This document shows positions 4,962-63,903 of a stretch of 64,000 nucleotides of DNA, one piece after another. The DNA is from a bacterium. Lineage in GTDB: Bacteria > Patescibacteriota > Patescibacteriia > Patescibacteriales > XYC2-FULL-47-12. How positions within the stretch are numbered: position 1 is the stretch's first letter; every line of letters begins with the position of its first letter. Under the pieces are notes generated by a model that ran no database searches, was not told where the DNA came from, and saw only the letters and a program-made list of their open reading frames with translations. The translations under genes and the position numbers were made by a program. The stretch is taken from contig JAUYLZ010000033.1 of the NCBI GenBank assembly GCA_030698385.1, forward strand, positions 9,905 to 73,904, written 5' to 3'.

Positions 4962-5054
4962 AATTTTGTTAAATTACAAGTTCCAAATAACAAATATCAA
5001 AAAAATTATAAATTTAAAATTTTAATATTTAGAACCTATAATAATATAAAATAA

Positions 5055-5190
5055 AAAAATCTCCGATAAAAACCGCAGATATTAGGATAATTAATTCTGA
5101 AATTTGCAATTTGCATTCAAAAATTAATACTTTTCCTCGACGAGATGTTTAACGCGAATTGCGCCTCGTTGTCTGCGGCTTGCCCCGTAA
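5055..5190 (-). promoter_or_regulatory. possible rplJ (L10) leader structure
   Basis: GC-enriched island inside an AT-rich ~400 bp 5' UTR. Outer inverted repeat ccgcaga/tctgcgg encloses inner hairpins (cgacgag...ctcgttg). Its position matches known L10 autoregulatory leaders. Confidence 0.25.
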
Positions 5191-5378
5191 AATTTAATTA
5201 TTTAGGGGATATTCAGTTATTATAGACATAATAGCATACCTTTAATTTTTGTCAAATGCATTTTTTTGTCAAAATACCACTGCTTACATATTTTATGTTA
5301 ATAACTATTTTTGGTGTAAAAATTTACTTTAATGTTAGCACCTTGACAAAAAAAATAAAAAAATGGCAAAGCAATTTT

Positions 5379-31135: not shown

Positions 31136-32542
31136 TTAAATTTCTTTTATTGAACTTATTATTCTTTGATAAACATTAATTAGTTGACTTTGATCACTTT
31201 CAACTGCCGAAAATCTAAGCGTTAAAATAAATTTGTTGTTAGAAACTAGACCAACAGTCAGAATTTGAGTATTCAACATAGCCTCATTAACAAGACTTTC
31301 ATCGTCATAAAAAATTAATTTGTGTAACTTTATTCCGTCGTCACTCCTAACAACGCTTTTATCTTTAAATGGTAAAGCAAATTCGTAATCTAAATTTTCA
31401 TCTAAATTATCAAAATTAAAATTTTGCCAATTTTCTTGGACTAAAACCTCCATTAACACTCCTTTAACTAACTCACTAGCATTACTCACAAAATTCTCTG
31501 ACTTAATGTCTGCTATTTTTGAAAACTGATTAACCGAATTTAAAATCCATTCTTTCGGATACTGAAACTCAAATCCATACTCCCCATTCCGATAGGTTTG
31601 CCAATCACTTGTATCAATGTCAGCTGTGTCGTTACTGTCTATAAATTTGAAAGTTAAAATAATTTTATCAACTAAACCTCTATCTTCTCCAGCTTGTAAA
31701 TAGCTGGAATATCTAACGAGCTTGCCGTCTATGACCACGGCAATATCATCAGAATGAACTGCTGTGCATGTGTATTTAAAAAACTTTGCTGAATTATTAT
31801 TTATAACAACATCACTAACATTTTCAATACAACTTTCAATTTCACTTATATAATCGTCTGTGTTATTAAACTCTGGAATTACTTTTATACTTAGAGTTGG
31901 TGGAGGAACAAAATCCCCTATTAACTGTTTAGCTCTGTTAGGTGAATAATATGCCTCTTTTTGTTTTACCCAATCTTTTGGCATACTTACTTCAAATCCA
32001 TACTCCTCATTCCGATATGTTTCCCAGTCCTTCGTTGAAACTTCGGACTGCAAGCCCAAGTCATTAATTTCTGTGCCTAATAATTCAAAACTCTCGGCCA
32101 TAGCGTTGATGATGTCACGGTACTGGAACGCGCCGCGCAGAATGTATTGTAAATCGTCTTGCGTGCTAACTACTTTGAGATAACCGTCATAACGCAACTC
32201 CGCCGTAATGTCAACGGCCAAAAGCTCAACCGGATAATCTCTTCCCTTGTTCAAAGCTTCTTCACTCATGGTAAAGCCAAAAAAATACTTAACCGGCGTC
32301 TGCTCGGCGCTCACATCGCGCTGCCACCACCATCCTTGCGGCAACTTCATACTGAAGCCCTCGCTCTCGCGCGCGAGCGTCTGCCATTTGGCTAAATCAC
32401 CAACGGGGACTTGGGCAACTTGCTCGTTCTGTGCGGCAATTCCCCTGTCTTTAGCGACTGGAATTTCCCCCGCCTTCAAACAACCGGATAAAATAAACGC
32501 GGCGGCAAGGATTAAAATGGATGTTTTAAAAAATTGAGACAT
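31136..32542 (-). CDS. lipoprotein of unknown function (paralog of 32562..33506, carries extra repeat modules)
   Basis: 468 aa. Lipobox LSGC. Shares ~120 aa N-terminal domain with its neighbour (PVGDLAKWQTL-RESE, YPVELL, YDGYL, QYRDIINAM). Internal repeats DWQTYRNGEYGFEFQYPKEW / DWETYRNEEYGFEVSMPKDW. Confidence 0.6.
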   Translation of the reverse strand: MSQFFKTSILILAAAFILSGCLKAGEIPVAKDRGIAAQNEQVAQVPVGDLAKWQTLARESEGFSMKLPQGWWWQRDVSAEQTPVKYFFGFTMSEEALNKGRDYPVELLAVDITAELRYDGYLKVVSTQDDLQYILRGAFQYRDIINAMAESFELLGTEINDLGLQSEVSTKDWETYRNEEYGFEVSMPKDWVKQKEAYYSPNRAKQLIGDFVPPPTLSIKVIPEFNNTDDYISEIESCIENVSDVVINNNSAKFFKYTCTAVHSDDIAVVIDGKLVRYSSYLQAGEDRGLVDKIILTFKFIDSNDTADIDTSDWQTYRNGEYGFEFQYPKEWILNSVNQFSKIADIKSENFVSNASELVKGVLMEVLVQENWQNFNFDNLDENLDYEFALPFKDKSVVRSDDGIKLHKLIFYDDESLVNEAMLNTQILTVGLVSNNKFILTLRFSAVESDQSQLINVYQRIISSIKEI

Positions 32543-32561: not shown

Positions 32562-33506
32562 TTAATTTTCTATGAACTTAAAACTTGAGGCAATGCCGTC
32601 TTGAAAATAAGTGTCCGTCCAGTTGTCTATGACAATTGAAATTAAATTGCCGCCGTCTATTACCTGCAACCAATACCAGTCGCCATAATTCACTGTTGTC
32701 AACAGCGCTTTTTTACCGCCAAGAGTAATTTCTCTTTTGGCAATACGGTCGGCGGCCAAACCGCCTTCATTATTTGGACCGCGGCCGCGCTTGTCATAGT
32801 TGTACAAAATTTCGGCCACATCCGTTGATTGGGTTGTCTCAATTTTCAAAAAATCCGGCGACACGAAACATGATATTTCGCCGCAGAACTCCAGATAAAA
32901 AACAGCGCCATCTTTTTTGTCTTCATAAATTTTTACCTGAGACGGGTATTTGAATTCAAAGCCATACTGATCATTCCGGTAAACCGGCCAACTTGTTATA
33001 TCCACGTTTTCATCAAGAAATTTAAAACTATCAATCATGGCGTTAATGATATCGCGATACTGGCGGCCGCCGCGCAAGACATACCGCGCGTCATCTCTGA
33101 TCATAAATGTTCGCAGATAGCCATCATAGCCCCATTCAGATCCGTCAGTGGTTATTAAAAATTCAACCGGATAATTCGCGCCTTTTCCCAAAGTCTCCTG
33201 GCTGGGCGCCAGTCCGAGAAAAAATGAAGTTTCCGGCGTTTCACCATCCCAGTCTCTTTGCCAGTACCAGCTTTGCGGATACTTAATGACAAAATTTTCA
33301 CTTTCTCGCTTCAGCGTCTGCCACTTGGCCAAATCACCAATGGGTACTTGCTCTGTATCTTTTTGTTTCGGCGTTATAAAACTCTCACCGGTATTAACTT
33401 TTTTCTGGCAACCGGATAATAATACTATTATTACCAAAATTAAAAAAATTATTCCTAGTTTCCTAGCCATTAATTTTTTGTAAAAAATCTGAAAATTAAA
33501 AATCAT
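32562..33506 (-). CDS. lipoprotein of unknown function (paralog of 31136..32542)
   Basis: 314 aa. Lipobox LSGC. Same conserved domain plus one WPVYRNDQYGFEFKYP module. Confidence 0.6.
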   Translation of the reverse strand: MIFNFQIFYKKLMARKLGIIFLILVIIVLLSGCQKKVNTGESFITPKQKDTEQVPIGDLAKWQTLKRESENFVIKYPQSWYWQRDWDGETPETSFFLGLAPSQETLGKGANYPVEFLITTDGSEWGYDGYLRTFMIRDDARYVLRGGRQYRDIINAMIDSFKFLDENVDITSWPVYRNDQYGFEFKYPSQVKIYEDKKDGAVFYLEFCGEISCFVSPDFLKIETTQSTDVAEILYNYDKRGRGPNNEGGLAADRIAKREITLGGKKALLTTVNYGDWYWLQVIDGGNLISIVIDNWTDTYFQDGIASSFKFIEN

Positions 33507-36497: not shown

Positions 36498-36568
36498 GCG
36501 AGATTAGTACAGTGGTAGTATATCGGCTTCCCAAGCCGAGGACGCCAGTTCGATCCTGGTATCTCGCT
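36498..36568 (+). tRNA. tRNA-Gly (anticodon CCC)
   Basis: Hand-folded cloverleaf: acceptor GCGAGAT/ATCTCGC, D-arm GTAC-AGTGGTA-GTAT, anticodon arm TCGGC-TTCCCAA-GCCGA, T-arm GCCAG-TTCGATC-CTGGT, discriminator T. No encoded CCA. Confidence 0.75.
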
Positions 36569-36699: not shown

Positions 36700-36775
36700 G
36701 CCGAAATAGCTCAGCTGGTAGAGCAATGCTTTCGTAAAGCAGAGGTCGGGAGTTCGAATCTCCCTTTCGGCTCCA
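36700..36775 (+). tRNA. tRNA-Thr (anticodon CGU)
   Basis: Acceptor GCCGAAA/TTTCGGC, D-arm GCTC-AGCTGGTA-GAGC, anticodon loop TTCGTAA, T-arm GGGAG-TTCGAAT-CTCCC, CCA encoded. Confidence 0.85.
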
Positions 36776-42910: not shown

Positions 42911-44695
42911 CTATCGTTTAAGTACGCTTAAGAAGGCCTCGGGAGGAATCTCCACGCCGCCCTTGCCCAAAGAGGCCATCTTCTTTTTGCCTTTCTTTTG
43001 TTTTTCCAATAACTTACGCTTGCGCGAAACATCGCCGCCGTAAAGTTTGGCGGTAACGTCTTTGCGCAAAGCCGAAATACGTTCCGCCGCGATGATTGAC
43101 CCGCCGATAGCGGCCTGGATTTTGAGCATGAACTGCTGGCGCGGCAAGGTATTTTTCAATGAATTAACAATTTCTTTGCCGCGCTTTTGCGCTTCGTCTT
43201 TGTAAACAATTGTGGACAGCGCCTCAACCGCTTCTTCAGCGACTAAAATATCCATCCGCACAACTTCGGCCGCGCGATAATCCAGATACTCATAATTAAT
43301 CGAGGCGTAACCGCTAGTCGCGCTTTTTATTTTATCGTAAAAATCAGTTAAAATTGTAGACATTGGCATTTCGTAATGCAGAACTGCCCGGTCATCATCA
43401 ATATATTCGGTCGTTCTATAAATGCCTCTTTTTTCTTGGACTAAATTCATAATTGAACCCATGTAGATCTTTGGCGTTATCACATCAAGCGTTACCCACG
43501 GCTCCTTAATCTCGGCAATCTGCGATGGATCAGGCAGGTCATAAGCCGAACGAATAATGGAATCTTTGCCGTCAGTTTTTTTTAACTGATAAGCAACCGA
43601 AGGAGTGGTTACAATTAATTCAAGATCAAATTCTCGGTGCAGACGCTCCTGAAAAATTTCCAAATGCAAAAGCCCCAAAAAACCGCAACGAAAGCCAAAA
43701 CCAAGCGCTTGCGACTGCTCGGGCTCATATATCAAAGCTGAATCAGTCAATTTCAGCTTGCCAATCGCCTCGCGCAGATCATCATACTCATTCCCTTCTT
43801 TGGCAAAAACTCCGGCAAAAACCATTGGCTTCACTACCTTGTAACCGGGCAGAGCTTTTACTTCTCCGGCCGCGGAAGTTTTCTTGGTAATAGTGTCGCC
43901 AACCTTGCACTCCTCAACCGACTTGAGTCCAGTAACGATATAGCCGATTTCTCCGGTGTCTAAACTTCCGGTCGAAAAATAGTCCGGCTTGAAAAATCCG
44001 ACATCCAAAGCCTCGCTTTCAGCCTCCGTTTCAATTAACTTTATTTTATCGCCTTTTTTGATACTGCCATCAACAACGCGCGCATAAGCAACAACCCCTT
44101 TGTACTCATCATAAACCGAATCAAAAATCATGGCGCGCAAGTTATTTTCTTTTTCCCCTCTCGGCGGCTGGACGCGATCAATGACTGCCTGCAAAATTTG
44201 TTCCACTCCCGCTCCGGTTTTTCCGGAGGCTTCAATAACGTCTTCAGCTTTGCAGCCGATCAACTTCACGATACTTGCTTTGGTGCCGCTGACATCTGCC
44301 GCTGGCAGATCAATTTTGTTCACCACCGGAATTATTTCCAAATTCTGTTCAAGCGCCAAATATAAGTTTGCCAAAGTCTGCGCCTGAATGCCTTGCGTTG
44401 AGTCAACTAACAAAATCGCCCCTTCAACAGCGGCGAGCGAACGTGATACTTCATAGGAAAAATCAACATGTCCGGGCGTGTCAATTAAATTCAAATGATA
44501 ACCCAAATAATTCATATTTACCGGCGCGAGCTTAATCGTAATGCCCCGCTCCCGTTCCAGCTCCATTTTGTCCAAAAATTGAGCTTTCATATTTCGTTTG
44601 TCAACGGTGTGGGTAATTTCAAGCATGCGGTCAGCGAGCGTTGACTTACCGTGGTCGATATGAGCGATAATACAGAAATTACGAATGTTGTTCAT
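42911..44695 (-). CDS. lepA: translation elongation factor 4 (LepA)
   Basis: 594 aa. NFCIIAHIDHGKSTLADR G1 motif, DTPGHVDF, NKIDL, and the LepA-specific C-terminal domain. Confidence 0.95.
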   Translation of the reverse strand: MNNIRNFCIIAHIDHGKSTLADRMLEITHTVDKRNMKAQFLDKMELERERGITIKLAPVNMNYLGYHLNLIDTPGHVDFSYEVSRSLAAVEGAILLVDSTQGIQAQTLANLYLALEQNLEIIPVVNKIDLPAADVSGTKASIVKLIGCKAEDVIEASGKTGAGVEQILQAVIDRVQPPRGEKENNLRAMIFDSVYDEYKGVVAYARVVDGSIKKGDKIKLIETEAESEALDVGFFKPDYFSTGSLDTGEIGYIVTGLKSVEECKVGDTITKKTSAAGEVKALPGYKVVKPMVFAGVFAKEGNEYDDLREAIGKLKLTDSALIYEPEQSQALGFGFRCGFLGLLHLEIFQERLHREFDLELIVTTPSVAYQLKKTDGKDSIIRSAYDLPDPSQIAEIKEPWVTLDVITPKIYMGSIMNLVQEKRGIYRTTEYIDDDRAVLHYEMPMSTILTDFYDKIKSATSGYASINYEYLDYRAAEVVRMDILVAEEAVEALSTIVYKDEAQKRGKEIVNSLKNTLPRQQFMLKIQAAIGGSIIAAERISALRKDVTAKLYGGDVSRKRKLLEKQKKGKKKMASLGKGGVEIPPEAFLSVLKR

Positions 44696-52303: not shown

Positions 52304-53314
52304 CTACTGGTAGTATAATTGTTCCAAAGCCAACTTTGGATTGACCGAAGCGTCTAAATACAACCTTGTTTTTTCCAAATTTTTATTGAATTCTATCAGT
52401 TCAGCAATTGTGATTGAAGTTTCTTTTATTTTTTCCAATAAATGCTGGTTGGCTGCCAAGTGTTCCTGCCCATAAGCAATGATTAATAAATCACGGATGA
52501 CGCTTTGCCAAAGATCAATAATTTCCTCGGCTTTTTTGCGCTCATCTTTTTTGCTTGTCTTGGCGAGCAAACTTGAACAAATTTTAATTTTGCCTTTCAA
52601 GTCGGCTGAAAATAAATTCAGAAGCTCCGCGGTCGTCGCGCGGATTTCTGCCAAGTAGCCCCTGTCTTCAAAAATCTTCGCCGCCCTGGCCGGACGGCTT
52701 AATGACAGATTGGCGAAATCACGGGCATCAGTGCGTGAAGCGCTAAAACAGTCAACCAAATAATCATTTATATCATTAACAGCAACTGATCGAAATGTCA
52801 GCACCTGCGCTCTGGAAACTATGGTCGTCGGCAGTTTTTCAAGCTCAGTCGCCAAAAGAATAATAATTATATTTTTCTTTGACTCCTCCAGCGTCTTTAG
52901 CAACGCGTTGGCCGCCTGATCGCTGAGTTTGTCCGCTTCTTTGATAATGCCAATTTTATAGATACCGACAAATGTGCCCAGACGCATAATATTGATAAAT
53001 TCCCTAACCTGATCAATACTGATGTTTTTTTTGTCCTCTTGTCTTTGCAAATAATGCACGTCGCTATGAATTTCCTTATAAACTTGGCGGCAACTAACGC
53101 ACTCCTGACAGGGCAACTTGCCGCTTTTTTTTAAATTATCACAAAGTAAAGTAGCGCCAAAATGTTTCGTAACCGTTGACTTCCCTACCTCAGCCAAACC
53201 CGTAAAGATATAACAATGGGCCAGCTTATCATTCACAATGCTGGCTTGCAAAAATTCAATAATATGCTGATTGCCAAAAAAAGGCCAATCAAACTGATAT
53301 TGGCTTACTTCCAT
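52304..53314 (-). CDS. holB: DNA polymerase III delta-prime subunit (clamp loader AAA+)
   Basis: 336 aa. HCYIFTGLAEVGKST P-loop variant, CxxC zinc module (CQECVSCRQV), sensor motifs. Short length fits delta-prime rather than tau. Confidence 0.7.
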   Translation of the reverse strand: MEVSQYQFDWPFFGNQHIIEFLQASIVNDKLAHCYIFTGLAEVGKSTVTKHFGATLLCDNLKKSGKLPCQECVSCRQVYKEIHSDVHYLQRQEDKKNISIDQVREFINIMRLGTFVGIYKIGIIKEADKLSDQAANALLKTLEESKKNIIIILLATELEKLPTTIVSRAQVLTFRSVAVNDINDYLVDCFSASRTDARDFANLSLSRPARAAKIFEDRGYLAEIRATTAELLNLFSADLKGKIKICSSLLAKTSKKDERKKAEEIIDLWQSVIRDLLIIAYGQEHLAANQHLLEKIKETSITIAELIEFNKNLEKTRLYLDASVNPKLALEQLYYQ

Positions 53315-53459
53315 ATCTAAACTATACCAGAATTTTTTATTGAAATCAAATATATTTAAAAATTTGCAGATTAGCTATATTACGTTATACTATAAGTATT
53401 ATACTAAGTGTTTAACACTTAAAATCGATCTTTTAGAATTAAAGGAGAAAATAAAAATC

Positions 53460-54386
53460 ATGAAAAAAAAATTATGGATTGCGCTGACAATGACAAGGTT
53501 CTTTGCCATAAACTTGTTAGGTCTGCTCGGATTACTATGGTTTGCGGCGGGACTTGGTAATTTTGAAATTACCCTTCCCTTCATTGGCGCAGTTCCGCCA
53601 ATGAGCTGGCCGGCGATTTTTTGCAATATTGCTTTGTTCTTTATCATAATGTTTGGCATCACTGGCGGCTATCATCGGTATTTTTCTCATCGCACTTACA
53701 AAACCTGGCGCTGGTTCCAAGCAGTGCTAGCGCTCTTAGGTAGTCTGGCGGCGCAATGGGGTCCTATTTTATGGACGTACCATCATCGCCTGCACCATAA
53801 ATATTCAGATAAAGAGCTTGACTTGCATTCACCTGTACAAAAAGGCTTCTGGTGGGCGCATCTACTGTGGATATTCTTCCAAATAAAATTGCCGGAAAAA
53901 ATATACTATGCAAATGCAACTACACTACAACGAATATGGTACTGGATTGTTCCGCCAGCGAATGTCTACCCTAAAGAAGTTAAAGATTGGACACGGTTCT
54001 GGGAACTGCGTCTCCTGGATAGATGGTGGATTGTTCCACCGATACTGCTGGGAGTTGCGATGTATTATTTTTTAGGTCTCGCTGGCCTATTTGCGTTCTT
54101 TACCTGCATTGTATGCACGTGGCATGCGACCTTTACTATTAATTCGGTAACCCATATCTTTGGGTCGCGCCGCTTTGACACTAAAGATAATAGCCGCAAT
54201 GTCTGGTGGCTATGGCTATTTACCATGGGAGAGAACTGGCATAACAATCACCACGATAATCCTACAGCGGAACCTCAGGGAATGTATTGGTGGGAGATAG
54301 ACTTAACTCACTACATTATAGTGTTTCTTTCATGGATAAAATTTGTCCAAGAAATAAAAACACGCAAGACATTACAAAAAATATAA
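53460..54386 (+). CDS. membrane fatty acid desaturase (acyl-lipid/acyl-CoA delta-9-like, three His boxes)
   Basis: Start taken at ATG 53460 with RBS aaaggag at 53441-47 (track ORF begins at a TTG at 53340). His boxes HRYFSH, HHRLHH, HNNHH with 4 TM in the desaturase arrangement. Confidence 0.8.
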   Translation: MKKKLWIALTMTRFFAINLLGLLGLLWFAAGLGNFEITLPFIGAVPPMSWPAIFCNIALFFIIMFGITGGYHRYFSHRTYKTWRWFQAVLALLGSLAAQWGPILWTYHHRLHHKYSDKELDLHSPVQKGFWWAHLLWIFFQIKLPEKIYYANATTLQRIWYWIVPPANVYPKEVKDWTRFWELRLLDRWWIVPPILLGVAMYYFLGLAGLFAFFTCIVCTWHATFTINSVTHIFGSRRFDTKDNSRNVWWLWLFTMGENWHNNHHDNPTAEPQGMYWWEIDLTHYIIVFLSWIKFVQEIKTRKTLQKI

Positions 54387-54403
54387 CTAAAAAACATAGA
54401 TCT

Positions 54404-54441
54404 TTAACTCCGTTTGCCTCGCCGGTAACCGGAGTTTTTTT
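54404..54441 (+). terminator. intrinsic terminator after desaturase
   Basis: aactccg...ccggtaaccgg...cggagtt hairpin followed by T7. Confidence 0.5.
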
Positions 54442-54559
54442 ATAGCTTGAAAATATTGTAAAAATAATATATGGTTACTATACGTTCTTTTAAAACAAGA
54501 TAGTTTTTAAACTATTTTTAGATATATTTTTGAGATCAAAAAAAGATTGGAGAAAAAAA

Positions 54560-56038
54560 ATGACACAAAATAAGCAATTAAGGTTTAGAATGATTATCCC
54601 GGCTTTTCCGCGCAATAACATTTATACGCGAATTGCTAAAAAAACAACTTCTTTGGGGCCTGTCTTAGTGGCTTCCGCTGTAAAAAAATTTTTGCCCAAT
54701 TGGGCGGTAGAAATTATTGATGAAAATAATTATCATCATGGACCATTGGCTGCGGACAACAAACCGGATCATACAATTCTGCAACAAGAAGACCCTGCTG
54801 ATGTAGTCGGTTTTTATTGTGGACTAACATCGACCATGCTCCGTGTCTGGGAGTTAGCCCAATTCTATAAACAATCAGGGGCAATTACCCTCGCCGGCAG
54901 CTGGCATGTTAAAGCCCTACCGGAAGAATCTTTAGAAAAAAATATTGATGTTGTGGTAATCGGCGATGGTGAAAAAGCAATTATTGACATTCTCACAAAG
55001 TTTGAAAATCAAAAAGACATACCGAGTATTATTACTGCCGAAAATATTAATCTTGCCTGTGACCTGCCATTTCCTGATTTTGGAATTTTAAGATTCGCTA
55101 GAATGAAATTGTATCCGCTGGGCATGATTCGCGGCTGTTCAAAAAAATGTGAATTCTGTCTGGTAAAAGACAAACCACGCTGGGGAACGCCGGAATACTT
55201 ATATGATTTGATGAAATGGCTGGTAGAAACTAGGCGTGCAAATAAATTTTTCCTAGTGGATGATCGTCTGGAAGAAAATCGCGAAGGCTATCTAAAATTC
55301 TTTGGGCTAGTTGCGCAAAAATATGGCCATAGCAAAGAACTCACTGCTCAAGCCAGATTGGAGGCTATTGAAGATAGTGAGTTGATAACGGCAATGGTAA
55401 ACGCTGGTGTAAAAAATGTTTGTCATGGAGTTGAATCCCCTATCCAAGCAGAACTTAATGCCATGCAAAAAGGCCTAAAAGTACAAAAAATGCTTGGTTA
55501 CCTGAAAGCCTGGCGAAAACTTTTTTTTGTGCACGCTATGTTTATGTGGGGTTACCCTCTAAAAACCGGCGTCCAAATTTCCTACTCGGAAAGAATTAAA
55601 ACTTTTAAAAGCTTTATCCGCAAAGGAAAGCCAGATACCATTCAGATATTACGGACGGTTCCTTTGCCTGGGTCGGAACTAAGAGAACGGCTAGAAGCAG
55701 AGAATAGGTTATTTCCGCTCAACGAGGTCAACTGGGATAAGTATGACGGCAATTTTGTCTGTTTTCTGCCCGGTCCCAATGATTTATCTTTAATTGAGAT
55801 TCAAAAAGGGCCGACTAAACTAATGCGATGGTTTTATTACTCTTTGGCCTGGGTGGTTTTTCCTTGGCGGACGATAATGATGCCGTTTGATTACATCTTT
55901 AGAGGCTGGTCACAGTGGTACCGCGGCTGGCGCAATGATCTTGCAAAAATAGGCGCTAATATCCTTCTTTTCAAGGAAAGACAGTCTGAAAAAAAGTTTA
56001 TCAAATTTTTACGTAATAAAAAAAAACAAAACACATAA
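54560..56038 (+). CDS. B12-binding domain-containing radical SAM protein
   Basis: Internal ATG at 54560 preferred (MTQNKQ...). N-terminal cobalamin-binding-like Rossmann region. CxxxCxxC cluster motif GCSKKCEFC. ~490 aa, typical of class B radical SAM enzymes. Confidence 0.75.
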   Translation: MTQNKQLRFRMIIPAFPRNNIYTRIAKKTTSLGPVLVASAVKKFLPNWAVEIIDENNYHHGPLAADNKPDHTILQQEDPADVVGFYCGLTSTMLRVWELAQFYKQSGAITLAGSWHVKALPEESLEKNIDVVVIGDGEKAIIDILTKFENQKDIPSIITAENINLACDLPFPDFGILRFARMKLYPLGMIRGCSKKCEFCLVKDKPRWGTPEYLYDLMKWLVETRRANKFFLVDDRLEENREGYLKFFGLVAQKYGHSKELTAQARLEAIEDSELITAMVNAGVKNVCHGVESPIQAELNAMQKGLKVQKMLGYLKAWRKLFFVHAMFMWGYPLKTGVQISYSERIKTFKSFIRKGKPDTIQILRTVPLPGSELRERLEAENRLFPLNEVNWDKYDGNFVCFLPGPNDLSLIEIQKGPTKLMRWFYYSLAWVVFPWRTIMMPFDYIFRGWSQWYRGWRNDLAKIGANILLFKERQSEKKFIKFLRNKKKQNT

Positions 56039-56135
56039 TAGCATACACGCCTCGGAATAAATATTCCGAGGCTATATTTTTTTTAAATAATTAATTGGCT
56101 TGCTTTTTTTCACCAAGTATCTTATAATATCACTC

Positions 56136-57509
56136 ATGAACTACACCTCATTAAAATTAAAAAAATATATTTTAATTCTTGGAGATATTGCGGTTCTTTA
56201 CTTGTCGCTATATCTCACGCTGATAGTTCGCTACGCGGAGTTGCCGACGGCCAACCTTTGGCAAGAACACTTCTGGCCGTTCACCGTTATTTTTTTTGTA
56301 TGGCTGATTATTTTTTATTTAAATAATCTATATGATTTAACTCTGGCGATTAATAACGTCAAATTTTACGGGCTTTCAGCGAACGCTCTTTTTTTTAATT
56401 TTTTAATCGGTTCCGCGTTTTTTTACCTCATCCCGCAGATTGGCATCACGCCAAAAAGAAATCTTTTTATTGATATTATAATCACCGCGATTATTTTTAT
56501 TCTCTGGAGACTAGTTTATAATGTGATATTAAAAACGTATCTGCCGAAAAGCAATGTCGCCATCATCGGGCTTAACGATCAGGTGCGCGAAATTATCAAG
56601 CATTTTCACAACTACCCTCATCTTGGATTCAAAATTGCCTGTTTGCTTTATGATAAAGAGGTCTATGAACAAGGCTTGTATAATATAAAAATTTGCAAAA
56701 ATGTTGATAATATAAAAGCAGAAATAAAAAATAATAATATTTCTATTGTTGTTCTCGCTGAAGATTTGCAAAAATCACAAGAACTTAGATCACAGCTATT
56801 TTCAGCCATTCACCTGGGAGTGAACTTCACCAGCTTAAATCATTTTTACGAAAAAATTATGGGAAAAATTCCCGTACAGGCGATTAACCAGATGTGGTTT
56901 TTGGAAAATTTAAACGAGGGCAGCAAGTTCTGGTTTGATTATTTTAAGCGTCTCTACGACGTTATTTTAGCTTTTGCCATTCTAATTATAACTATTCCCT
57001 TCTGGCCGATAATCGGTCTGATAATTACTTTGGAAAGCCGCGGCTCCATGTTTTACTCACAAAAAAGAGTCGGCATAAACAACAAAATTATTCATCTGAC
57101 AAAATTCCGCACTATGATTGAAACCGGAAATACCCGCCGACCGACAGTACCCAACGACTCGCGCGTAACACGCCTTGGCGGCTATCTGCGCCGCATGCGC
57201 ATTGATGAAATACCGCAGGTCATAAATATCATCAAAGGCGACATGAGCTTCATCGGCCCGCGCCCGGAACGACCGGAACTTGTGGTAAACTTACAAAAAG
57301 AAATTCCTTTTTATAACGAGCGCACGCTGGTTCTGCCCGGCGTTACCGGCTGGGACCAGGTCTGCGGCGAATATCATTCGCCCTCCACTGAAGATACAAT
57401 AAAAAAACTCCAGTATGATTTGTTTTATATAAAAAACAGATCTGTATTTTTAGACCTGTTGATTATTTTAAAGACATTAAGAACGGTTGTTTTGGGAAAG
57501 GGGCGATAA
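56136..57509 (+). CDS. polyprenyl-phosphate glycosyl-1-phosphate transferase (WbaP/bacterial sugar transferase family)
   Basis: Start at ATG 56136 (MNYTSLK...). 4-5 N-terminal TM. C-terminal sugar transferase domain (KRLYDVILAF ... YSQKRVGINNKIIHLTKFRTM ... DEIPQVINIIKGDMSFIGPRPERPE). Confidence 0.8.
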   Translation: MNYTSLKLKKYILILGDIAVLYLSLYLTLIVRYAELPTANLWQEHFWPFTVIFFVWLIIFYLNNLYDLTLAINNVKFYGLSANALFFNFLIGSAFFYLIPQIGITPKRNLFIDIIITAIIFILWRLVYNVILKTYLPKSNVAIIGLNDQVREIIKHFHNYPHLGFKIACLLYDKEVYEQGLYNIKICKNVDNIKAEIKNNNISIVVLAEDLQKSQELRSQLFSAIHLGVNFTSLNHFYEKIMGKIPVQAINQMWFLENLNEGSKFWFDYFKRLYDVILAFAILIITIPFWPIIGLIITLESRGSMFYSQKRVGINNKIIHLTKFRTMIETGNTRRPTVPNDSRVTRLGGYLRRMRIDEIPQVINIIKGDMSFIGPRPERPELVVNLQKEIPFYNERTLVLPGVTGWDQVCGEYHSPSTEDTIKKLQYDLFYIKNRSVFLDLLIILKTLRTVVLGKGR

Positions 57510-57513
57510 AAAT

Positions 57514-58731
57514 TTATTTAATTGAGTTAAATAAATATATAAATAAATTTTTATCTGCCTTGCTAAATTTGATTCTGCGCCGTGCCATGACTTTTCCAGC
57601 AGTAACCATAGCTTTATCAAGTTGATAGCTCATCTCGTTTTTACCCGCTTCCAGCCAAGAAAATGAAGGTATGTATTTTGGCAAATAACCGGCGCCAAAA
57701 ATGTTACTGGAAAAACCCACAGTTGTGCCGGTATTAAACATGGTATTGATTCCGCTTTTAGAATGATCGCCCATGAATAAGCCGACAAAAGTTAACCCGG
57801 TGTTAATTTTATTTTTACCGTCAAAAATAATATCAACATTGCTGTAATTATTCTTTAAATCACTATTATTGGTATTTGCGCCCAAATTGCACCAAGAGCC
57901 GATATAGGCGTGGCCCAAAAAACCATCGTGCTGCTTGTTGCTATAGTCTAAAATGATGCTTTCCTCAACTTCACCGCCGACTTTGCAAACCGAACCAATG
58001 GAGGTGCCTTCATAAATTTTAGCGCCGACTTTTATTTTAGACTGTGGACCAATATAGACTGGGCCAATGATGACGCTGTTAGGCATGACTTCCGTCTTTT
58101 CCTCAATAACCACTGGACCGTCTTCAGCGTTAATCACTGCACCCGGCATTATTTTACTGCCTTGTCCTATAAAAATATTTTTTTTATTTATTAAATACGC
58201 GCCAGGATAAACTTGGCCGGCAATTTTCCCCAATGAAAAACTTTTCGCGTCGCTAATTATTTGTTCGCTGTTGCCGTTAACTAAATCCCAAATATAGTTT
58301 GCTAATTTTACTTTAACTTGAATTTTTTTAAGTTTATTTTCTTGTAAACTAAAATAATTATCTGTATTATTAATAAGCGCTAAATTTTCTTTGGTTAAAT
58401 ATGCCGCCACTAACTCTTGTCTTACATAAAATACGGCATCAGTTTTCGTCTTAGTAACTGTCTGCAGAAAATTTTTATCTGCAACTACTCTTCCATTGAT
58501 AAAAAGCGTAGCCTCGGAATTTTTTTTCTGAATAAATAATTTGAAATTCTGCTTTTTTGCCATCGGTTGCAGATATTTTCGGCAATGATAACAATAGCTG
58601 GCCCGAGGCTGGTATTTAATAATTTTTTGAGCCAAAGTAAAAATACCGCAACGCATTTCCCAGACGGGTCGTGAAAGCGTCAAAGGATAAAAATTATTCG
58701 CTTTTTTATCTTCAAAGATACAAATTTGCAT
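57514..58731 (-). CDS. GlmU-like sugar nucleotidyltransferase/acyltransferase with left-handed beta-helix (hexapeptide repeats)
   Basis: 405 aa. N-terminus IFEDKKANNFYPLTLSRPVWEMRCG resembles sugar-nucleotidyltransferase starts. Long C-terminal run of [LIV]-G-x-x-x-x hexapeptides (IGQGSKIMPGAVINAEDGPVVIEEKTEVMPNSVIIGPVYIGPQSKIKVGAKI...). Confidence 0.55.
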   Translation of the reverse strand: MQICIFEDKKANNFYPLTLSRPVWEMRCGIFTLAQKIIKYQPRASYCYHCRKYLQPMAKKQNFKLFIQKKNSEATLFINGRVVADKNFLQTVTKTKTDAVFYVRQELVAAYLTKENLALINNTDNYFSLQENKLKKIQVKVKLANYIWDLVNGNSEQIISDAKSFSLGKIAGQVYPGAYLINKKNIFIGQGSKIMPGAVINAEDGPVVIEEKTEVMPNSVIIGPVYIGPQSKIKVGAKIYEGTSIGSVCKVGGEVEESIILDYSNKQHDGFLGHAYIGSWCNLGANTNNSDLKNNYSNVDIIFDGKNKINTGLTFVGLFMGDHSKSGINTMFNTGTTVGFSSNIFGAGYLPKYIPSFSWLEAGKNEMSYQLDKAMVTAGKVMARRRIKFSKADKNLFIYLFNSIK

Positions 58732-58828
58732 TATTTTAAAATATCTAATAATTAAATATGGGGTCTGCTCTAACGAACTAAAATAAAAATTATTTTCGTT
58801 TTTATTTTTTTATATTTTGCAATAGTAT

Positions 58829-59542
58829 TTAATATTTTAATAAGCGTGTTAACAAAAATTCTGCTACTTCCAAATCATACGGCACGTTGATGTCTATTGA
58901 CCTGTTCGCCGGCATTATATATGCCCGGGAAGTCTTGCCAAATGAATCACCTTGCATAATAAGCGATGTTTTAGTTAGATAAACTGCGCAATTGCGTTTA
59001 TATGCTTTTACGCCTTTCTGCCTTGATAAAGACTGGCGGCCTTCGTCAGTAAAAAGAGGTTTAATCAAATTGTTTTTTGTAATAAGTTTTATTTTAGACG
59101 GATCAAAATCAACTAACTCTACCATGCTCATAACTGAATCGGCATTTGAATCAACTGCAATTTTAATACATTCATCAATATCTTCAGCTGATCTTAGGGG
59201 AGAAGTTGGTTGTAAAGTCATAACATAATCATACGAGGCTTTTTGATTTTCCTTAAGCCACCGCAAAGCATGCTGAACTACCGGCATATGAGGCGTATCA
59301 TGCTGCGCCAGCGCTGCCGGACGCATAAATGGCACCTTGCCGCCGTAAATCTTTGCGACTTCAGCAATTTCGTCATCATCCGTTGAAACAATACAGTTCG
59401 TCAAAAGAGCGCTGGCTTGAGCCACCTGTAAAGTATAAGCAATCATTGGCCTTCCTCCTAACAAAACTATATTTTTCTTCGGGATGCTGGTAGAGCCGCC
59501 GCGAGCCGTTATTAAACCTAAAATTTTTTTATTTTTATACAT
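58829..59542 (-). CDS. CMP-sugar synthetase (acylneuraminate/nonulosonate cytidylyltransferase family)
   Basis: 237 aa. LITARGGSTSIPKKNI N-terminal signature of the NeuA/KdsB cytidylyltransferase family. Overlaps the neighbour by 1 bp. Confidence 0.8.
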   Translation of the reverse strand: MYKNKKILGLITARGGSTSIPKKNIVLLGGRPMIAYTLQVAQASALLTNCIVSTDDDEIAEVAKIYGGKVPFMRPAALAQHDTPHMPVVQHALRWLKENQKASYDYVMTLQPTSPLRSAEDIDECIKIAVDSNADSVMSMVELVDFDPSKIKLITKNNLIKPLFTDEGRQSLSRQKGVKAYKRNCAVYLTKTSLIMQGDSFGKTSRAYIMPANRSIDINVPYDLEVAEFLLTRLLKY

Positions 59543-59543
59543 A

Positions 59544-61055
59544 TTATTTAGTGCAGTCGCTGGAACTGCGAATTAATATGGCGTAACTGTCAATTGTTTG
59601 ATCAAGCTGATAACAACTATAATCAAGATCATGCAACCCCGCCTCTTTACTTAAATATACCGCGGGCGAGATCAACATGTCATATTCACCGCGCTCAATT
59701 GCTGTTCTAATTTCTCTGCCGAGACTTAGCTTTTCATTTATCCTAATATATTGATAAAAATTTTCATTCGGATATAAGTATGCAAGTTCAGATGCGTTAT
59801 AAAAAACGACGCTAGTTGATGGTTTGATGGTTTTTAAATACTGACCGAGAGGAGTTATTTTATCCGGTCTATACCCCCACTCTTCATTACCGAGATGAAT
59901 AAACTGAACTGCCAGCAATAACCCAACGGCGACAACAGCTAAATCTTTCCGCCAATTTAAAAATTTAACTATGTAAAGCACGGCTGCCGGTAGAAAAATA
60001 AAAAGCAAGACATGGGCCGGAAAAAAATAACGATACCAGCCTGGTGTACGCAGATAAGCGCCGATTGTCAACAAAGAAAAACAGAACACAATGATCTCAA
60101 CGCTATAAATTTTTTCTTTCTTTTTAAATTTAATGATTAAAAAAAACAAAAAAACCGTGAGAAGCGCGCTAAAATGAACCGGCGTTGACTCCATAAAAAA
60201 TCTAAAAAAGTTAGAGGATAACAAATTTAATATTTCCTCAGCCGGCAGTTGATAAGGATTGCTGTAAAAAGAATACATTTCTGCCCAGTTAATGGCGCCG
60301 CTAAATTGCGTCTTCACCCAGATAACTAACGGCGCTATAAAACCGATTGCTCCGCTTAAAAAAGTGTAGGGCAATTTTTTCCAAAAATGAATTTTAAAAA
60401 TAACGGATACTAATACTGCCGCGGCAATTATTAAAAAAGACGGCTTTGTGGCGGCAGCCAAACCAAAGCCCAGCCCGGCTAGAAAAGCGTAAATTTGACG
60501 CTGATTGGCGCCAAACTTTCTGTCCATTTCTTCAGTCAGGTGCATAAAAAACATGCCAAAGGTAAAATAAAACAGTCCCGGCACCTCACCAATAACTGAC
60601 TTTCCGTTGCCGTAAAGCGGGGCAAAGGTGGTAAGTAACAGTGTAGCAGCCAGCGCTAAATAGCCGCCATAAAGCCTTTGGACCAGTAGATAAAAACTTA
60701 AAGTAAAACCAATAATAAAAAGCGCCATTATGACGCGAGCTCCAAATATACTCTGTCCGAAAAATTTAACCAGAAAAGCCTGCGGCAAAAGCAGTGGATA
60801 GCCAACTGTAACCAGTGATAAGTCGCTGTAACTGTCAGGACTAAGCTGAACGCCAAATACTCCGTTATCGGCCAGCGTCCGCCCGGCATGTAAGAATATT
60901 CCTTCATCAAACCAAACTGCAGGCTTACTGGTTAAATTGTAAAAACTGGCGGATAGAACAATAGCCGCCGCGAAAATACCAAGTAAGATTTTTACCTGAT
61001 TTGTTTTCAGCGTTAAATTTTTAAATTTATATCTATGCATAATAAGCCTTATCAC
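59544..61055 (-). CDS. GT-C fold glycosyltransferase (ArnT/PMT-like, GT83/GT39 family)
   Basis: 503 aa, ~11 TM. N-terminal PAVWFDEGIFLHAGRTL (DE motif in first periplasmic loop) typical of ArnT/PMT glycosyltransferases. Confidence 0.7.
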   Translation of the reverse strand: MIRLIMHRYKFKNLTLKTNQVKILLGIFAAAIVLSASFYNLTSKPAVWFDEGIFLHAGRTLADNGVFGVQLSPDSYSDLSLVTVGYPLLLPQAFLVKFFGQSIFGARVIMALFIIGFTLSFYLLVQRLYGGYLALAATLLLTTFAPLYGNGKSVIGEVPGLFYFTFGMFFMHLTEEMDRKFGANQRQIYAFLAGLGFGLAAATKPSFLIIAAAVLVSVIFKIHFWKKLPYTFLSGAIGFIAPLVIWVKTQFSGAINWAEMYSFYSNPYQLPAEEILNLLSSNFFRFFMESTPVHFSALLTVFLFFLIIKFKKKEKIYSVEIIVFCFSLLTIGAYLRTPGWYRYFFPAHVLLFIFLPAAVLYIVKFLNWRKDLAVVAVGLLLAVQFIHLGNEEWGYRPDKITPLGQYLKTIKPSTSVVFYNASELAYLYPNENFYQYIRINEKLSLGREIRTAIERGEYDMLISPAVYLSKEAGLHDLDYSCYQLDQTIDSYAILIRSSSDCTK

Positions 61056-61065
61056 TACTTATTTT

Positions 61066-62142
61066 TTAGTAAGCCCTGTCCTGATCTCCTCCCCCCTTAG
61101 TAGTATACCATTTCTTTGAATCTACTCTTGGTTTATTGTTAACCTTAAAAACAAAGTTTATAAAATTTTTACCCTTTAGATCCAAAGGGTTAAAGCGATT
61201 CGGCAAATATTTATAATAATTTTTATTGCAATTAACAAATCCCAGCTTCTGCAGACTATTTAAATGATAATCTCCGGAAAAAAAATAATCTATAAAATAA
61301 ATATTTTGATTTTTAAAATAATTAATTAAACTCTCTAAAAAAAATTTTTCGGTCTCGTCAAAAGAAATAAAATCTATAATGCGTGCGACTGGAAATTCAC
61401 CCCCCCCTTCTCTTCTTATTACAGCAAATGACTTAATCAAATTTTCAGATGTAAGTATGAATATCTCATAATTAATCAAAGGATGTTTAAAGTACCGCCA
61501 ATTTAAATAAGCTTCTGAACGCTCAACGCTTAAAGGGTATTTTTTTAACATATTTTCGCTGTTAAAAAAAACGTTTAATCTGTTATCAAAACTGTCTATT
61601 TTTTTAAAATTGTCAGAATATTTATTTTCATAGTCTAAATTTTCGAGTGCTTCACTGTTTGTAATTTTCAGATCTTTCAAACCGTCAAATTTTTTTATAC
61701 TGGAAACATTATAAATAAACACGTAGCGATTTAAATTAAATCCCCTCCACCCTCGGCCAGTAAATAGCTTCATGGCATCTTCATTTAAACCATGGTCGCA
61801 GGCTAGCGGACTAATCTTTTCAGCTTCACGCAGCAATAAATAACCTAAACCAAAATTTCTTAAATCTTTTTTTACGATTAAATTTGCTAAGCTAGTGCAA
61901 TTTATTTTAGCATTAAAATAATTAAATTTTAATACGGTCATGCCAAAAACTCCAATTAAAGAGCCCCCTCCACTAAAAACTCCTAAAATTGAAAAATTAT
62001 TGTTTGCCAACGGAAATTCGCCAAACTGCCAATGAATGTATTTGGGGTCAGTCAATATATGTGATGGTCCATAGTTATCACGATTAAAATCAAGTAATTT
62101 TTCTTCTTCACTTTTTTGTAAAAATCTTATTTTGATGTCCAT
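61066..62142 (-). CDS. two-lobed GNAT-fold (FemAB/Acetyltransf_6-like) acyl/aminoacyl transferase, putative
   Basis: 358 aa. N-lobe LANLIVKKDLRNFGLGYLLLREAEK resembles GNAT motif A. A second GNAT-like lobe is in the C-terminal half. Overlaps the carrier-protein gene by 16 bp. Confidence 0.4.
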   Translation of the reverse strand: MDIKIRFLQKSEEEKLLDFNRDNYGPSHILTDPKYIHWQFGEFPLANNNFSILGVFSGGGSLIGVFGMTVLKFNYFNAKINCTSLANLIVKKDLRNFGLGYLLLREAEKISPLACDHGLNEDAMKLFTGRGWRGFNLNRYVFIYNVSSIKKFDGLKDLKITNSEALENLDYENKYSDNFKKIDSFDNRLNVFFNSENMLKKYPLSVERSEAYLNWRYFKHPLINYEIFILTSENLIKSFAVIRREGGGEFPVARIIDFISFDETEKFFLESLINYFKNQNIYFIDYFFSGDYHLNSLQKLGFVNCNKNYYKYLPNRFNPLDLKGKNFINFVFKVNNKPRVDSKKWYTTKGGGDQDRAY

Positions 62143-62381
62143 TGAATTATTTTTTTTGATATATTATCTATTGAATTAAAGTTTTCCGGAGTTAAGCTTA
62201 ATATATCAATTTCAATTTTAAATTTTTTTTCAATATAATCTATCAAACTAAACATCGTTAAAGAGCTCACTATCCCCTCTTTTACAAGATCACGCTCATC
62301 ATCTTCTATTGTAAAACTGGTCGCTTTAATTAAATAATCTCTCAAATTTTTTTTTATTTCTATCAAATCTATATTACTCAT
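62127..62381 (-). CDS. DltC-like aminoacyl/acyl carrier protein
   Basis: 84 aa. KEGIVSSLTMFSLIDYIEKKFKIEIDILSLTPENFNSIDNISKKII aligns with D-alanyl carrier protein DltC ([28 protein letters not shown]...IIAKV). The phosphopantetheine Ser lies in the SSL position. Confidence 0.6.
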   Translation of the reverse strand: MSNIDLIEIKKNLRDYLIKATSFTIEDDERDLVKEGIVSSLTMFSLIDYIEKKFKIEIDILSLTPENFNSIDNISKKIIQWTSK

Positions 62382-63903
62382 AATTTTTTTTTAATGTTTC
62401 TCTGTCAATTTTACCTGTACTTGTTTTAGGTAACAATGACAGAAAATGAAATTTACTTGGAATCATATAATATGGTAAAATTTTAGCAAGATCTGCGGAA
62501 ACCTGTTCAGATGATAAACTCTCTTTAGATGCGATAAAAGCTGTTAAATCTACTGCATTATTAAGTTCTCTAAAAATAATTGTTGTTTCAGTTACATAAT
62601 CTAATGAATAAATCGCTTTTTCAATTTCGCCAACTTCAATACGATACCCCATTCTCTTAAATTGATCATCTTTACGACCGATAAAACTGTAATTGCCATT
62701 TTCATCAAGATAAACTAAATCACCGGTTTTATATACGATATCTTTATATTTACTATTGAATGGATTTTGAATAAAAACTTCCCTAGTCTTTTTTTCATTG
62801 CACCAGTAACCCGGACTAAGGCAGGCGCCCCTGATAAAAAGCTCGCCGCTTGATTTTCTTTCCGCCTTTCGTCCATCTGCATCTAAAGCAAAAATTTCCG
62901 CGTTCGCGCACGATTTGCCGATTGGAACTGATTTATCTACTTCTTTCGGAACTTCCTTAATTCTATAAAAACTGCATTGAACCGTAGCCTCGGTGGGCCC
63001 ATACATATTAATAAATTCTTTATCCGGAAAAATCTTCATCCAATCTCTTAAATACTTAACCGGAAAAACTTCACCATTGAAACATATACTTCTGACTTTT
63101 TTTAATCTGCTTGGATCTATACTGCCTGCTTGAAAAAGATAAGAAAGCAATGACGGCACTGAATTCCAGATTGTAATTTCTGTCTTTTCTATGTAGTCCA
63201 CCAACGCTCCCGGAAAAACCGATAATTTTTCGGGAATTAAAACCAATGTTGCCCCGCTTTTTATTGATGAATAAATATCAAAAGTTGATAAGTCAAAATG
63301 AAAAGGAGGATGCGCCGATAATTTGTCTGCAGCCGTTATTTTTAGTTCTGATACCGACCATTCAGCCGCATCAATTACATTACGATGCGTAATCATTACT
63401 CCTTTGGGCGTGCCGGTCGAACCTGAGGTGTAAAAAATATATGCTAAATCGGAATCAATAGACTGATAATTTGGGTTTAAATTGCTTTGACTAGTTATTT
63501 GAGCATTGACCGCATCACTATCAAGAGAATATAACTCAATATCTTTTGCCGTCATTTTTTTTATTTTGTCTTCTGTTTCATCTTCATATAAAACAATTTT
63601 TGGCTTGGCATCATTGACAATTTTCTCTAATCTCTCATAAGGAGAATTCGCATCCAGAGGCACATATATGGCATCGGCTTTTAAAATGCCAAAAATAGTT
63701 GCTAAGGATTTAATTGATTTATGCAGACAAAAACAAACTCTGTCTCCATGTTTTATATCCAAATGTTTTAGATAATTAGCTATTTGATTAGCCAAGCTGT
63801 TCAAATCAGAATAATTAATAATTTCTTCATTAAAAATGGCCGCGATTTTATGCGGTTGTTTGATTGCCTGTTCATCCAGATATTGTTGAAGTAAATATAT
63901 CAT
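62374..63903 (-). CDS. DltA-like amino acid adenylation enzyme (AMP-binding, ANL superfamily)
   Basis: 509 aa. AMP-binding signature IFYTSGSTGTPKGVMITHRNV, YGPTE, GELFIRG, and C-terminal PKTSTGKIDR lysine motif. Length and organisation match DltA. Confidence 0.8.
   Translation of the reverse strand: MIYLLQQYLDEQAIKQPHKIAAIFNEEIINYSDLNSLANQIANYLKHLDIKHGDRVCFCLHKSIKSLATIFGILKADAIYVPLDANSPYERLEKIVNDAKPKIVLYEDETEDKIKKMTAKDIELYSLDSDAVNAQITSQSNLNPNYQSIDSDLAYIFYTSGSTGTPKGVMITHRNVIDAAEWSVSELKITAADKLSAHPPFHFDLSTFDIYSSIKSGATLVLIPEKLSVFPGALVDYIEKTEITIWNSVPSLLSYLFQAGSIDPSRLKKVRSICFNGEVFPVKYLRDWMKIFPDKEFINMYGPTEATVQCSFYRIKEVPKEVDKSVPIGKSCANAEIFALDADGRKAERKSSGELFIRGACLSPGYWCNEKKTREVFIQNPFNSKYKDIVYKTGDLVYLDENGNYSFIGRKDDQFKRMGYRIEVGEIEKAIYSLDYVTETTIIFRELNNAVDLTAFIASKESLSSEQVSADLAKILPYYMIPSKFHFLSLLPKTSTGKIDRETLKKNYE

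Follow-up and report, generated by a model that had tools for sequence, protein, structure and literature searches.

We analyzed a 64,000-nucleotide stretch of bacterial DNA (contig JAUYLZ010000033.1 of GenBank assembly GCA_030698385.1, positions 9,905 to 73,904), which is called the window in what follows, and in particular two neighboring genes within it, one for a membrane fatty-acid desaturase and one for a radical S-adenosylmethionine (SAM) protein with a B12-binding-like domain (Table 1). [quoted passage not shown] Their adjacency would then reflect shared residence in a gene-turnover hotspot and not a shared pathway. The original prediction, made from the window alone, had proposed that the two proteins are a lipid-remodelling pair, and this was not borne out, as no desaturase was found within 10 kb of any of the 80 best radical SAM loci, the two genes come and go independently at the slot, and they appear to be transcribed separately.

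The host was placed by means of the LepA protein encoded in the window (42911-44695, minus strand), which shares 79-80% identity with Candidatus Falkowbacteria proteins and 73% with those labelled "Patescibacteria group". These values indicate that the host is a Falkowbacteria-like CPR bacterium, in agreement with the CPR-like genome that the original prediction had taken as its premise.

The slot between holB and the glycosylphosphotransferase gene

The desaturase and radical SAM genes are bordered by holB on the left and by a gene for a polyprenyl glycosylphosphotransferase (Bac_transf) on the right, and the interval between these borders (53315-56099 of the window) was compared in 11 distinct contigs. 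One Logan contig, L084, shares with the window a collinear run of at least 10 genes, from MsrB-MurJ-RseP-RRF-BNR-holB to Bac_transf, and has the same order and orientation at the slot, namely holB (minus), desaturase (plus), radical SAM gene (plus) and Bac_transf (plus). The identity between the two sets of proteins was 75% for LepA, 67% for MurJ, 62% for Bac_transf, 51% for the radical SAM protein and 41% for the desaturase.

The contents of the slot differed among the contigs. Both genes were present in the window and L084, and the radical SAM gene alone was present in L087 and L094, the first of which encodes a LepA (P0249) named Candidatus Falkowbacteria RIFOXYC2_FULL_47_12. The desaturase gene alone was found in L089 and L090, which are one sequence from two samples. 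The slot was empty, with holB followed directly by Bac_transf, in L086 (the same contig as L095), L088, L092, L093 and L097, and in L096 it was occupied by an NMO/FabK-like gene on the opposite strand (1931-3331 of that contig, minus; PF03060). All four combinations of presence and absence of the two genes thus exist at one locus, and the gain or loss of the desaturase gene is independent of that of the radical SAM gene. In Falkowbacteria-like genomes, this slot between two conserved genes is a hotspot of turnover.

On L086, one of the contigs with an empty slot, a different radical SAM gene (1082-2188, 368 amino acids, PF04055 only) is located two genes past Bac_transf, beside a gene for a PIG-L deacetylase. 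At a tblastn threshold of E 1e-6, this gene was not found to be a homolog of the radical SAM gene in the window.

The two genes of the window are also predicted to be separate transcription units, with the radical SAM gene monocistronic. As listed in Table 1, each gene is followed by an intrinsic-terminator-like hairpin with a U-run and preceded by a promoter-like site. L084 is similar in that a hairpin of 13 bp with T7 and, after it, a promoter-like site that matches the consensus at 10 of 12 positions are located between the desaturase and radical SAM genes. A predicted terminator and a promoter-like site therefore separate the two genes in both of the genomes that carry the pair, an arrangement that, as a prediction, speaks against co-transcription. 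Promoter-like sites were slightly more common in the region than in shuffled sequences (16 compared to 10.3 +/- 3.7), and because such sites are barely enriched over shuffles, those found at the two genes are weak evidence. The earlier statement that the radical SAM gene has its own terminator and promoter can be retained at the level of folding for the hairpins and of consensus matches for the promoters.

The relationship between the two genes was next evaluated across the family to which the radical SAM protein belongs. A profile scan of one genome per GTDB species identified at least 480 loci of this family in the GTDB representatives, and the best 80 of these came from Patescibacteria, Omnitrophota, Planctomycetota, Elusimicrobiota, Ratteibacteria and Desulfobacterota. 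When the desaturase of the window was used as the tblastn query, no desaturase was found within 10 kb of the radical SAM gene in any of the best 80 loci. De novo clustering of 1,079 flanking open reading frames (ORFs) yielded no neighbor family present in more than 14 of the 80. A Nealsonbacteria-like subclade keeps the order holA-S20-rSAM-ruvA-Mur-ligase-like gene (rSAM being the radical SAM gene), with tsaE, fpg, a gene for a 5'-3' exonuclease, uvrB and rtcB nearby, and because these neighbors are housekeeping genes, the conserved arrangement seems to be inherited synteny. When the 150 genes at the +/-1 and +/-2 positions of non-CPR loci were assigned to Pfam families, 197 families were counted; the largest had no more than 5 members, and lipid-related families were absent. 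Conserved co-occurrence or adjacency of the desaturase and radical SAM genes was thus not observed, either in the 80 loci or in the four states of the slot. In a CPR subclade, the radical SAM gene is instead conserved together with unrelated housekeeping neighbors (holA, S20, ruvA, fpg and the Mur-ligase-like gene), which is the outcome that the original prediction had itself named as contrary to linkage.

Several observations weigh against the interpretation of two independent genes, and some of them would suit an alternative in which the pair is a functional lipid-remodelling module, with one enzyme desaturating and the other C-methylating scavenged acyl chains. The adjacent genes keep their order and orientation in two much-diverged genomes, those of the window and L084, and in this clade both genes, where present, occupy this one slot. 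The best match of the radical SAM protein among NCBIfam models, although below threshold, was TIGR04072, described as a "lipid biosynthesis B12-binding/radical SAM protein", and HpnJ was matched as well. The aromatic, basic C-terminal domain of the protein could suit an enzyme that acts at a membrane interface, and the NMO/FabK-like cargo of the slot in L096 is weakly lipid-flavored. Furthermore, the 11 distinct contigs are a small sample of the slot, and the terminators are predictions. However, the scores against TIGR04072 and HpnJ were 51.7 and 47.6 bits, compared to cutoffs of 360 and 578 bits, predicted terminators and promoters separate the genes in both pair-bearing genomes, and each gene occurs without the other at the same slot. 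No desaturase accompanied the family in the 80 loci, and no lipid family recurred among the neighbors. Most members of the radical SAM family come from largely anaerobic lineages, in which an O2-dependent partner would make no sense. Taken together, these results make a lipid-remodelling module very unlikely, and we retain the interpretation of two independent accessory genes. The practical result is a negative one, in that adjacency alone is no basis for annotating the radical SAM protein as a lipid methylase.

The desaturase and its history

AAAGGAG stands upstream of the ATG codon with which the desaturase gene begins, and the product is identical to the metagenome-assembled genome protein P0001 at NCBI. 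The match to PF00487 (FA_desaturase) was 76.7 bits, relative to a gathering cutoff of 29.7, and all eight histidines of the three boxes are present in the pattern HX4H / HX2HH / HX2HH, together with an NX3H pair. The second box begins 37 residues past the first histidine of box 1, and both this distance and the distance from the NX3H pair to box 3 are those of stearoyl-CoA desaturase 1 (SCD1). A Kyte-Doolittle scan gave the four hydrophobic segments expected of such an enzyme (residues 14-32, 52-70, 195-213 and 207-225), although the method is crude and the last two segments overlap. The only solved structures matched were mammalian stearoyl-CoA desaturases, namely SCD1 (4YMK, E 4.6e-20, and 4ZYO), and in the alignment to SCD1 the metal ligands of that enzyme coincide with the boxes and the NX3H pair.

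The protein resembles SCD1 and the bacterial and cyanobacterial DesC-type delta-9 desaturases, named "stearoyl-CoA desaturase (delta-9)" in KEGG, in its boxes, its NX3H pair, its four hydrophobic segments and the signature GE(G/N)WHN(Y/N)HH. In contrast to these enzymes, it is short (308 amino acids), has no fused cytochrome b5 or reductase domain, and is a long-branch sequence in a CPR genome. More than 6,700 homologs were scored, of which the best were only 48-50% identical, and the protein is at most 50% identical to anything among 5.8 billion proteins. Thousands of homologs lie at 45-50% identity, and those that are named are called stearoyl-CoA or acyl-CoA (delta-9) desaturases. The protein is no member of the NCBIfam DesA family NF049918 as defined there (56.1 bits, relative to a cutoff of 400). 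Therefore, as judged from its sequence, the gene encodes a canonical O2-dependent acyl desaturase with three histidine boxes, as had been proposed originally, and the question of class raised at that time is answered in favor of the delta-9 (SCD/DesC) type over the sphingolipid and carotenoid types by the SCD1 match and the names of the homologs. Delta-9 is, by family resemblance, the most likely regiochemistry.

Such an enzyme would use O2 and two electrons from a donor to introduce a cis double bond, most likely at the delta-9 position, into a saturated acyl chain, which could be linked to CoA or already be part of a membrane lipid. With regard to the donor, a search of the ORFs in the 64-kb window found no ferredoxin, cytochrome b5, flavodoxin or rubredoxin motifs. 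No fab or pls genes were visible within the window, and CPR bacteria are generally without fatty-acid synthesis. The cell would presumably use the desaturase to fluidize acyl chains of outside origin. Many CPR bacteria live without oxygen. At least three Falkowbacteria-like lineages carry an O2-dependent, delta-9-type desaturase, and that of the window is well preserved and has had time to take on the composition of its host. These observations suggest that some such bacteria edit the acyl chains they acquire and that they meet oxygen. [quoted passage not shown] The annotations of the two genes are ordinary, and the main interest, which is modest, lies in the occurrence of the desaturase in a CPR genome.

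The GC content of the desaturase gene (0.428) and its GC content at third codon positions (0.447) agree with those of the adjacent holB and BNR genes, and therefore the gene is no recent arrival. Recent horizontal gene transfer as the main explanation was rejected because of this agreement. The desaturases of the window and L084 are 41% identical, and each of them is closer (48-52%) to desaturases from elsewhere than to the other, whereas the L084 and L089 desaturases are 67% identical to one another. As a point of comparison, holB and BNR likewise reach no more than 35-39% identity between the window and L084. In a neighbor-joining tree, the L084 and L089 desaturases grouped with 100% bootstrap, and the window desaturase (branch length 0.45) joined them in an exclusive clade in only 8% of the replicates. 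The sequences are thus consistent with one old acquisition followed by fast divergence or with two separate acquisitions, and the tree supports neither of these over the other.

A more radical explanation would be that the desaturase is not CPR biology, being either a recent foreign insertion or an artefact of assembly or binning that stems from a proteobacterium-like organism. The best homologs, at 48-50% identity, would fit this explanation to the extent that those that are named or placed come from diderms (Steroidobacteraceae, Myxococcota, and P0003, one of the outside relatives, which is on a contig with RND/OEP efflux genes), as would the low bootstrap value for an exclusive CPR clade. 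However, the desaturase gene lies on a single contig between a CPR-type holB and the radical SAM gene, its composition is in line with that of its neighbors, and the same slot holds desaturases in two other Falkowbacteria-like lineages. The long branch, furthermore, points to long residence and not to recent arrival. We consider a foreign insertion or artefact extremely improbable, and the desaturase is treated here as an accessory gene of the Falkowbacteria-like host.

The radical SAM protein and its neighborhoods

The longest ORF of the radical SAM gene begins with a TTG codon at 54530, which would give a protein of 502 amino acids, and stops at 56038. The likely start is the ATG codon at 54560, which has GGAG 8 nucleotides upstream and agrees with the 492-amino-acid NCBI protein P0121. 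The PF04055 (Radical_SAM) match was 32.2 bits, relative to a cutoff of 29.5, and the PF02310 (B12-binding) match was 32.1 bits, which is exactly the cutoff (32.1). In the L087 relative, the PF02310 score was 43 bits, and this domain is carried by all but 3 of the 120 homologs listed for the protein. An AlphaFold2 model calculated from an alignment of the family (mean predicted local distance difference test score, pLDDT, 82.6; predicted template modelling score 0.72) folds residues 7-149 into an N-terminal beta/alpha domain, about 185-365 into a partial TIM barrel and about 373-491 into a helical C-terminal domain. This last domain has an isoelectric point (pI) of 9.8, a content of tryptophan, phenylalanine and tyrosine of 18%, a pLDDT of about 90, and five residues (W392, Y395, W450, W453 and W457) that are invariant in a 24-member alignment. 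The pI was about 9.3 in all 24 of the family members tested. An auxiliary Fe-S cluster was considered, and only three further near-invariant cysteines were found (C87, C288 and C401), spread over three domains. The domain architecture, a PF02310-type Rossmann domain with a CX3CX2C core, is that of a class-B radical SAM enzyme, as the original prediction had stated.

The protein did not belong to any named NCBIfam family, as its 11 matches to the family models all scored far below the curated cutoffs. In addition to TIGR04072 and HpnJ, these included TIGR04013 (49.3 bits, cutoff 251), BchE (43.4 bits, cutoff 481), MgmA TIGR04014 (29.7 bits, cutoff 360) and HpnR (22 bits, cutoff 650). The label "YgiQ (UPF0313)" given to homologs by JGI was not adopted; no YgiQ model was present among the NCBIfam matches, and we regard it as a COG1032 name of a generic kind. 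The protein belongs to a large, uncharacterized family of radical SAM proteins with a B12-binding-like domain. HpnJ, HpnR, TIGR04072 and BchE share the domain pair with it and a weak profile similarity, whereas no hopanoid, ladderane or chlorophyll genes are located near the radical SAM gene of the window.

The nearest relative of solved structure in a profile search was 9CCB (E 5e-15, about 18% identity), which has been identified in the literature as the cobalamin-dependent MCR glutamine C-methyltransferase MgmA/QCMT, followed by OxsB, CysS and TokK. The solved class-B enzymes MgmA/QCMT (9CCB), TsrM (6WTE), TokK (7KDX), CysS (9N1B) and OxsB (5UL2-5UL4) have in common with the window protein a Rossmann B12-type domain and a partial TIM barrel with the CX3CX2C motif, and profile matches to such structures in the PDB ranged from 5e-15 to 7e-6. 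In contrast, the tryptophan-rich C-terminal domain of the window protein is without counterpart in these enzymes, and the identity is only 12-18%. A Foldseek search with the model gave AprD4, TsrM, MgmA, MiaB and OxsB as about equal matches (E about 1e-14, template modelling scores 0.35-0.44), such that AprD4, which does not use cobalamin, and the methylthiotransferase MiaB scored as well as the class-B enzymes.

By analogy with MgmA, TokK and CysS, the single most likely chemistry is cobalamin-dependent C-methylation, and the protein would cleave SAM reductively at the CX3CX2C cluster to initiate radical chemistry on an anionic or hydrophobic substrate. B12-dependent radical SAM enzymes methylate, but they also catalyze other reactions (2026 review, PMC12931638), and the relatives of this class include enzymes of ring contraction (OxsB), cyclization (BchE) and other chemistries. 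AprD4 and ArsL have a related Rossmann-like domain that does not bind cobalamin (PMC12931638). Because there are non-methylating relatives as well as the cobalamin-free AprD4 and ArsL, the protein can be called a class-B methylase only provisionally. No riboswitch, for cobalamin or any other ligand, was found by Rfam in positions 53200-56200, and there was no specific support for the name "lipid-tail methylase".

A different context for the family was suggested by the neighborhoods of its 51 non-CPR loci, in which the identities of the neighbors were confirmed by Pfam and which, phylogenetically, do not count as independent samples. Cold-shock-domain genes were present within 1.5 kb of the radical SAM gene in 8 loci, 12 genes in all, compared to 4 such genes in the other 471 kb of flank, so that these genes are 8.9-fold denser near the radical SAM gene (binomial p 1.6e-5). 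All are co-oriented with it and they are often in tandem. RRM_1 genes (5 near, 0 far, p 6.5e-4) were likewise concentrated, whereas DEAD-box helicase genes, present in five loci at distances of up to about 2 kb, were not significantly enriched (p 0.14). At least one of these three kinds of gene is present within 1.5 kb in 13 of the 51 loci (L031, L035, L037, L038, L041, L043, L048, L055, L060, L069, L076, L079 and L080), which belong to Omnitrophota, Planctomycetota and a Desulfuromonas. Neither the 64 kb of the window nor its CPR relatives contain any cold-shock-domain, RRM or DEAD-box genes.

These neighborhoods might indicate that the family is part of a low-temperature or RNA-chaperone regulon, in which it would act as a modifier of RNA or of the ribosome, or serve an O2-independent cold adaptation, and that the adjacency to the desaturase reflects a shared stress theme and not a pathway. 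Desaturases are classic cold-inducible genes. The enrichment near the radical SAM gene is accompanied by the uniformly basic pI of the family and by the location of the CPR copies among ribosomal and replication genes, which would be in keeping with such a role. However, the window and its CPR relatives have none of the associated genes, the DEAD-box result was not significant, and the loci are not independent. Furthermore, neighborhood is not equal to regulation, a basic pI suits membranes as well as RNA, and most neighbors in small CPR genomes are housekeeping genes anyway. We consider membership in such a regulon unlikely. A bolder version, which we regard as distinctly unlikely, is that the family is an oxygen-independent cold-adaptation enzyme (methylating membrane acyl chains by radical chemistry, for example, or modifying rRNA or tRNA) that is co-regulated with cold-shock, RRM and DEAD-box genes in Omnitrophota and Planctomycetota, and that, together with the desaturase, it would be a small homeoviscous or cold-adaptation island remodelling scavenged lipids in some Falkowbacteria-like CPR bacteria. 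The cold-shock neighborhood is a lead, not a function, for the family. The radical SAM protein of the window adds a further member to this very widespread family, for which the cold-shock association is the first testable context.

Feature coordinates and the wider window

Table 1. Positions in the window of the two genes, their motifs and domains, their predicted transcription signals and the borders of the slot.
Feature	Position	Strand	Basis or comment
holB (DNA polymerase III delta'), left border of slot	52304..53314	-	PF13177, E 1.3e-43; syntenic in L084, L086-L089, L092-L097
Promoter-like TTAACA-16-TAGAAT upstream of desaturase gene	53412..53439	+	Consensus match only, 10/12
SCD-type (delta-9 class) membrane di-iron acyl desaturase, predicted, 308 aa	53460..54386	+	PF00487, SCD1 match, homolog names
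Histidine box 1, HRYFSH, residues 72-77	53673..53690	+	
Histidine box 2, HRLHH, residues 109-113 (H-HRLHH at 108-113)	53784..53798	+	
NSVTH, residues 228-232, corresponding to the Asn and the ninth His that bind metal in TM4 of SCD1	54141..54155	+	Aligned to SCD1 NSAAH
Histidine box 3, HNNHH, residues 261-265, inside GENWHNNHH	54240..54254	+	
Intrinsic-terminator-like hairpin (54406-54436) and U7, 3' of desaturase gene	54406..54443	+	-16 kcal/mol, z -4.24, 0/200 shuffles as stable
Promoter-like TTGAAA-17-TATGGT upstream of radical SAM gene	54447..54475	+	Consensus match only, 9/12
B12-binding-like and radical SAM enzyme, uncharacterized family, 492 aa	54560..56038	+	Pfam, alignment, AlphaFold2, homologs
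N-terminal Rossmann-like (B12-binding-type) domain, residues about 6-160	54575..55039	+	PF02310; AlphaFold2 strands and helices at 7-149
CX3CX2C radical SAM cluster motif, C193-SKK-C197-EF-C200	55136..55159	+	Shared without change by all 24 aligned members
Conserved helical domain at the C terminus, aromatic and basic, residues about 371-492, resembling no named domain	55670..56035	+	Alignment, AlphaFold2
Intrinsic-terminator-like hairpin (56049-56072; 10 bp, 6 GC pairs) and U-run, 3' of radical SAM gene	56049..56085	+	-17.4 kcal/mol, z -5.76, 0/200 shuffles
Polyprenyl glycosylphosphotransferase (Bac_transf), right border of slot	56100..57509	+	TIGR03025, 340 bits, cutoff 295.55; 61-67% identical in syntenic relatives

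The other contents of the window, which resemble those of a CPR genome and were identified mostly by eye from translations, include genes for L10, L7/L12, enolase, PGK, two iPGM proteins, PilT, a pseudopilin, FtsE, FtsX, RecJ, MurJ, RseP and RRF, in addition to holB and a cell-surface glycan cluster. A search of the 64 kb with Rfam identified an L10 leader (5044-5196, minus strand, 54.7 bits) upstream of the L10-L7/L12 genes and two tRNA genes (36498-36568 and 36700-36772, plus strand), and no other RNA families reached the gathering score. The two iPGM genes are adjacent paralogs arranged head to tail (11708-13306 and 13313-14899, minus strand), and they lie near the genes for enolase (16627-17907) and PGK (18994-20181), all identified by eye.

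Two adjacent genes for putative lipoproteins (31136-32542 and 32562-33506, minus strand) are located between the FtsX and FtsE genes. The two proteins share an N-terminal module, PVGDLAKWQTL-RESE-F--K-PQ-W-WQRD ... YRDIINAM, and appear from this resemblance to be tandem paralogs.

The glycan cluster lies downstream of the radical SAM gene (56100-63903) and begins with the initiating transferase Bac_transf that forms the right border of the slot. It also encodes an alternative GlmU (TIGR03991, 437 bits), a PseF-like cytidylyltransferase, a PMT_2/ArnT-like membrane glycosyltransferase and a 358-amino-acid protein without a family match (61066-62142). Further on are genes for an 84-amino-acid carrier protein with weak ACP/DltC matches (62127-62381) and for a DltA-like amino-acid adenylation enzyme (62374-63903, TIGR01733 at 379 bits). 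The GC content falls to 0.30-0.34 at the distal end of the cluster. The arrangement looks like a system for Dlt-like aminoacylation of a surface polymer.

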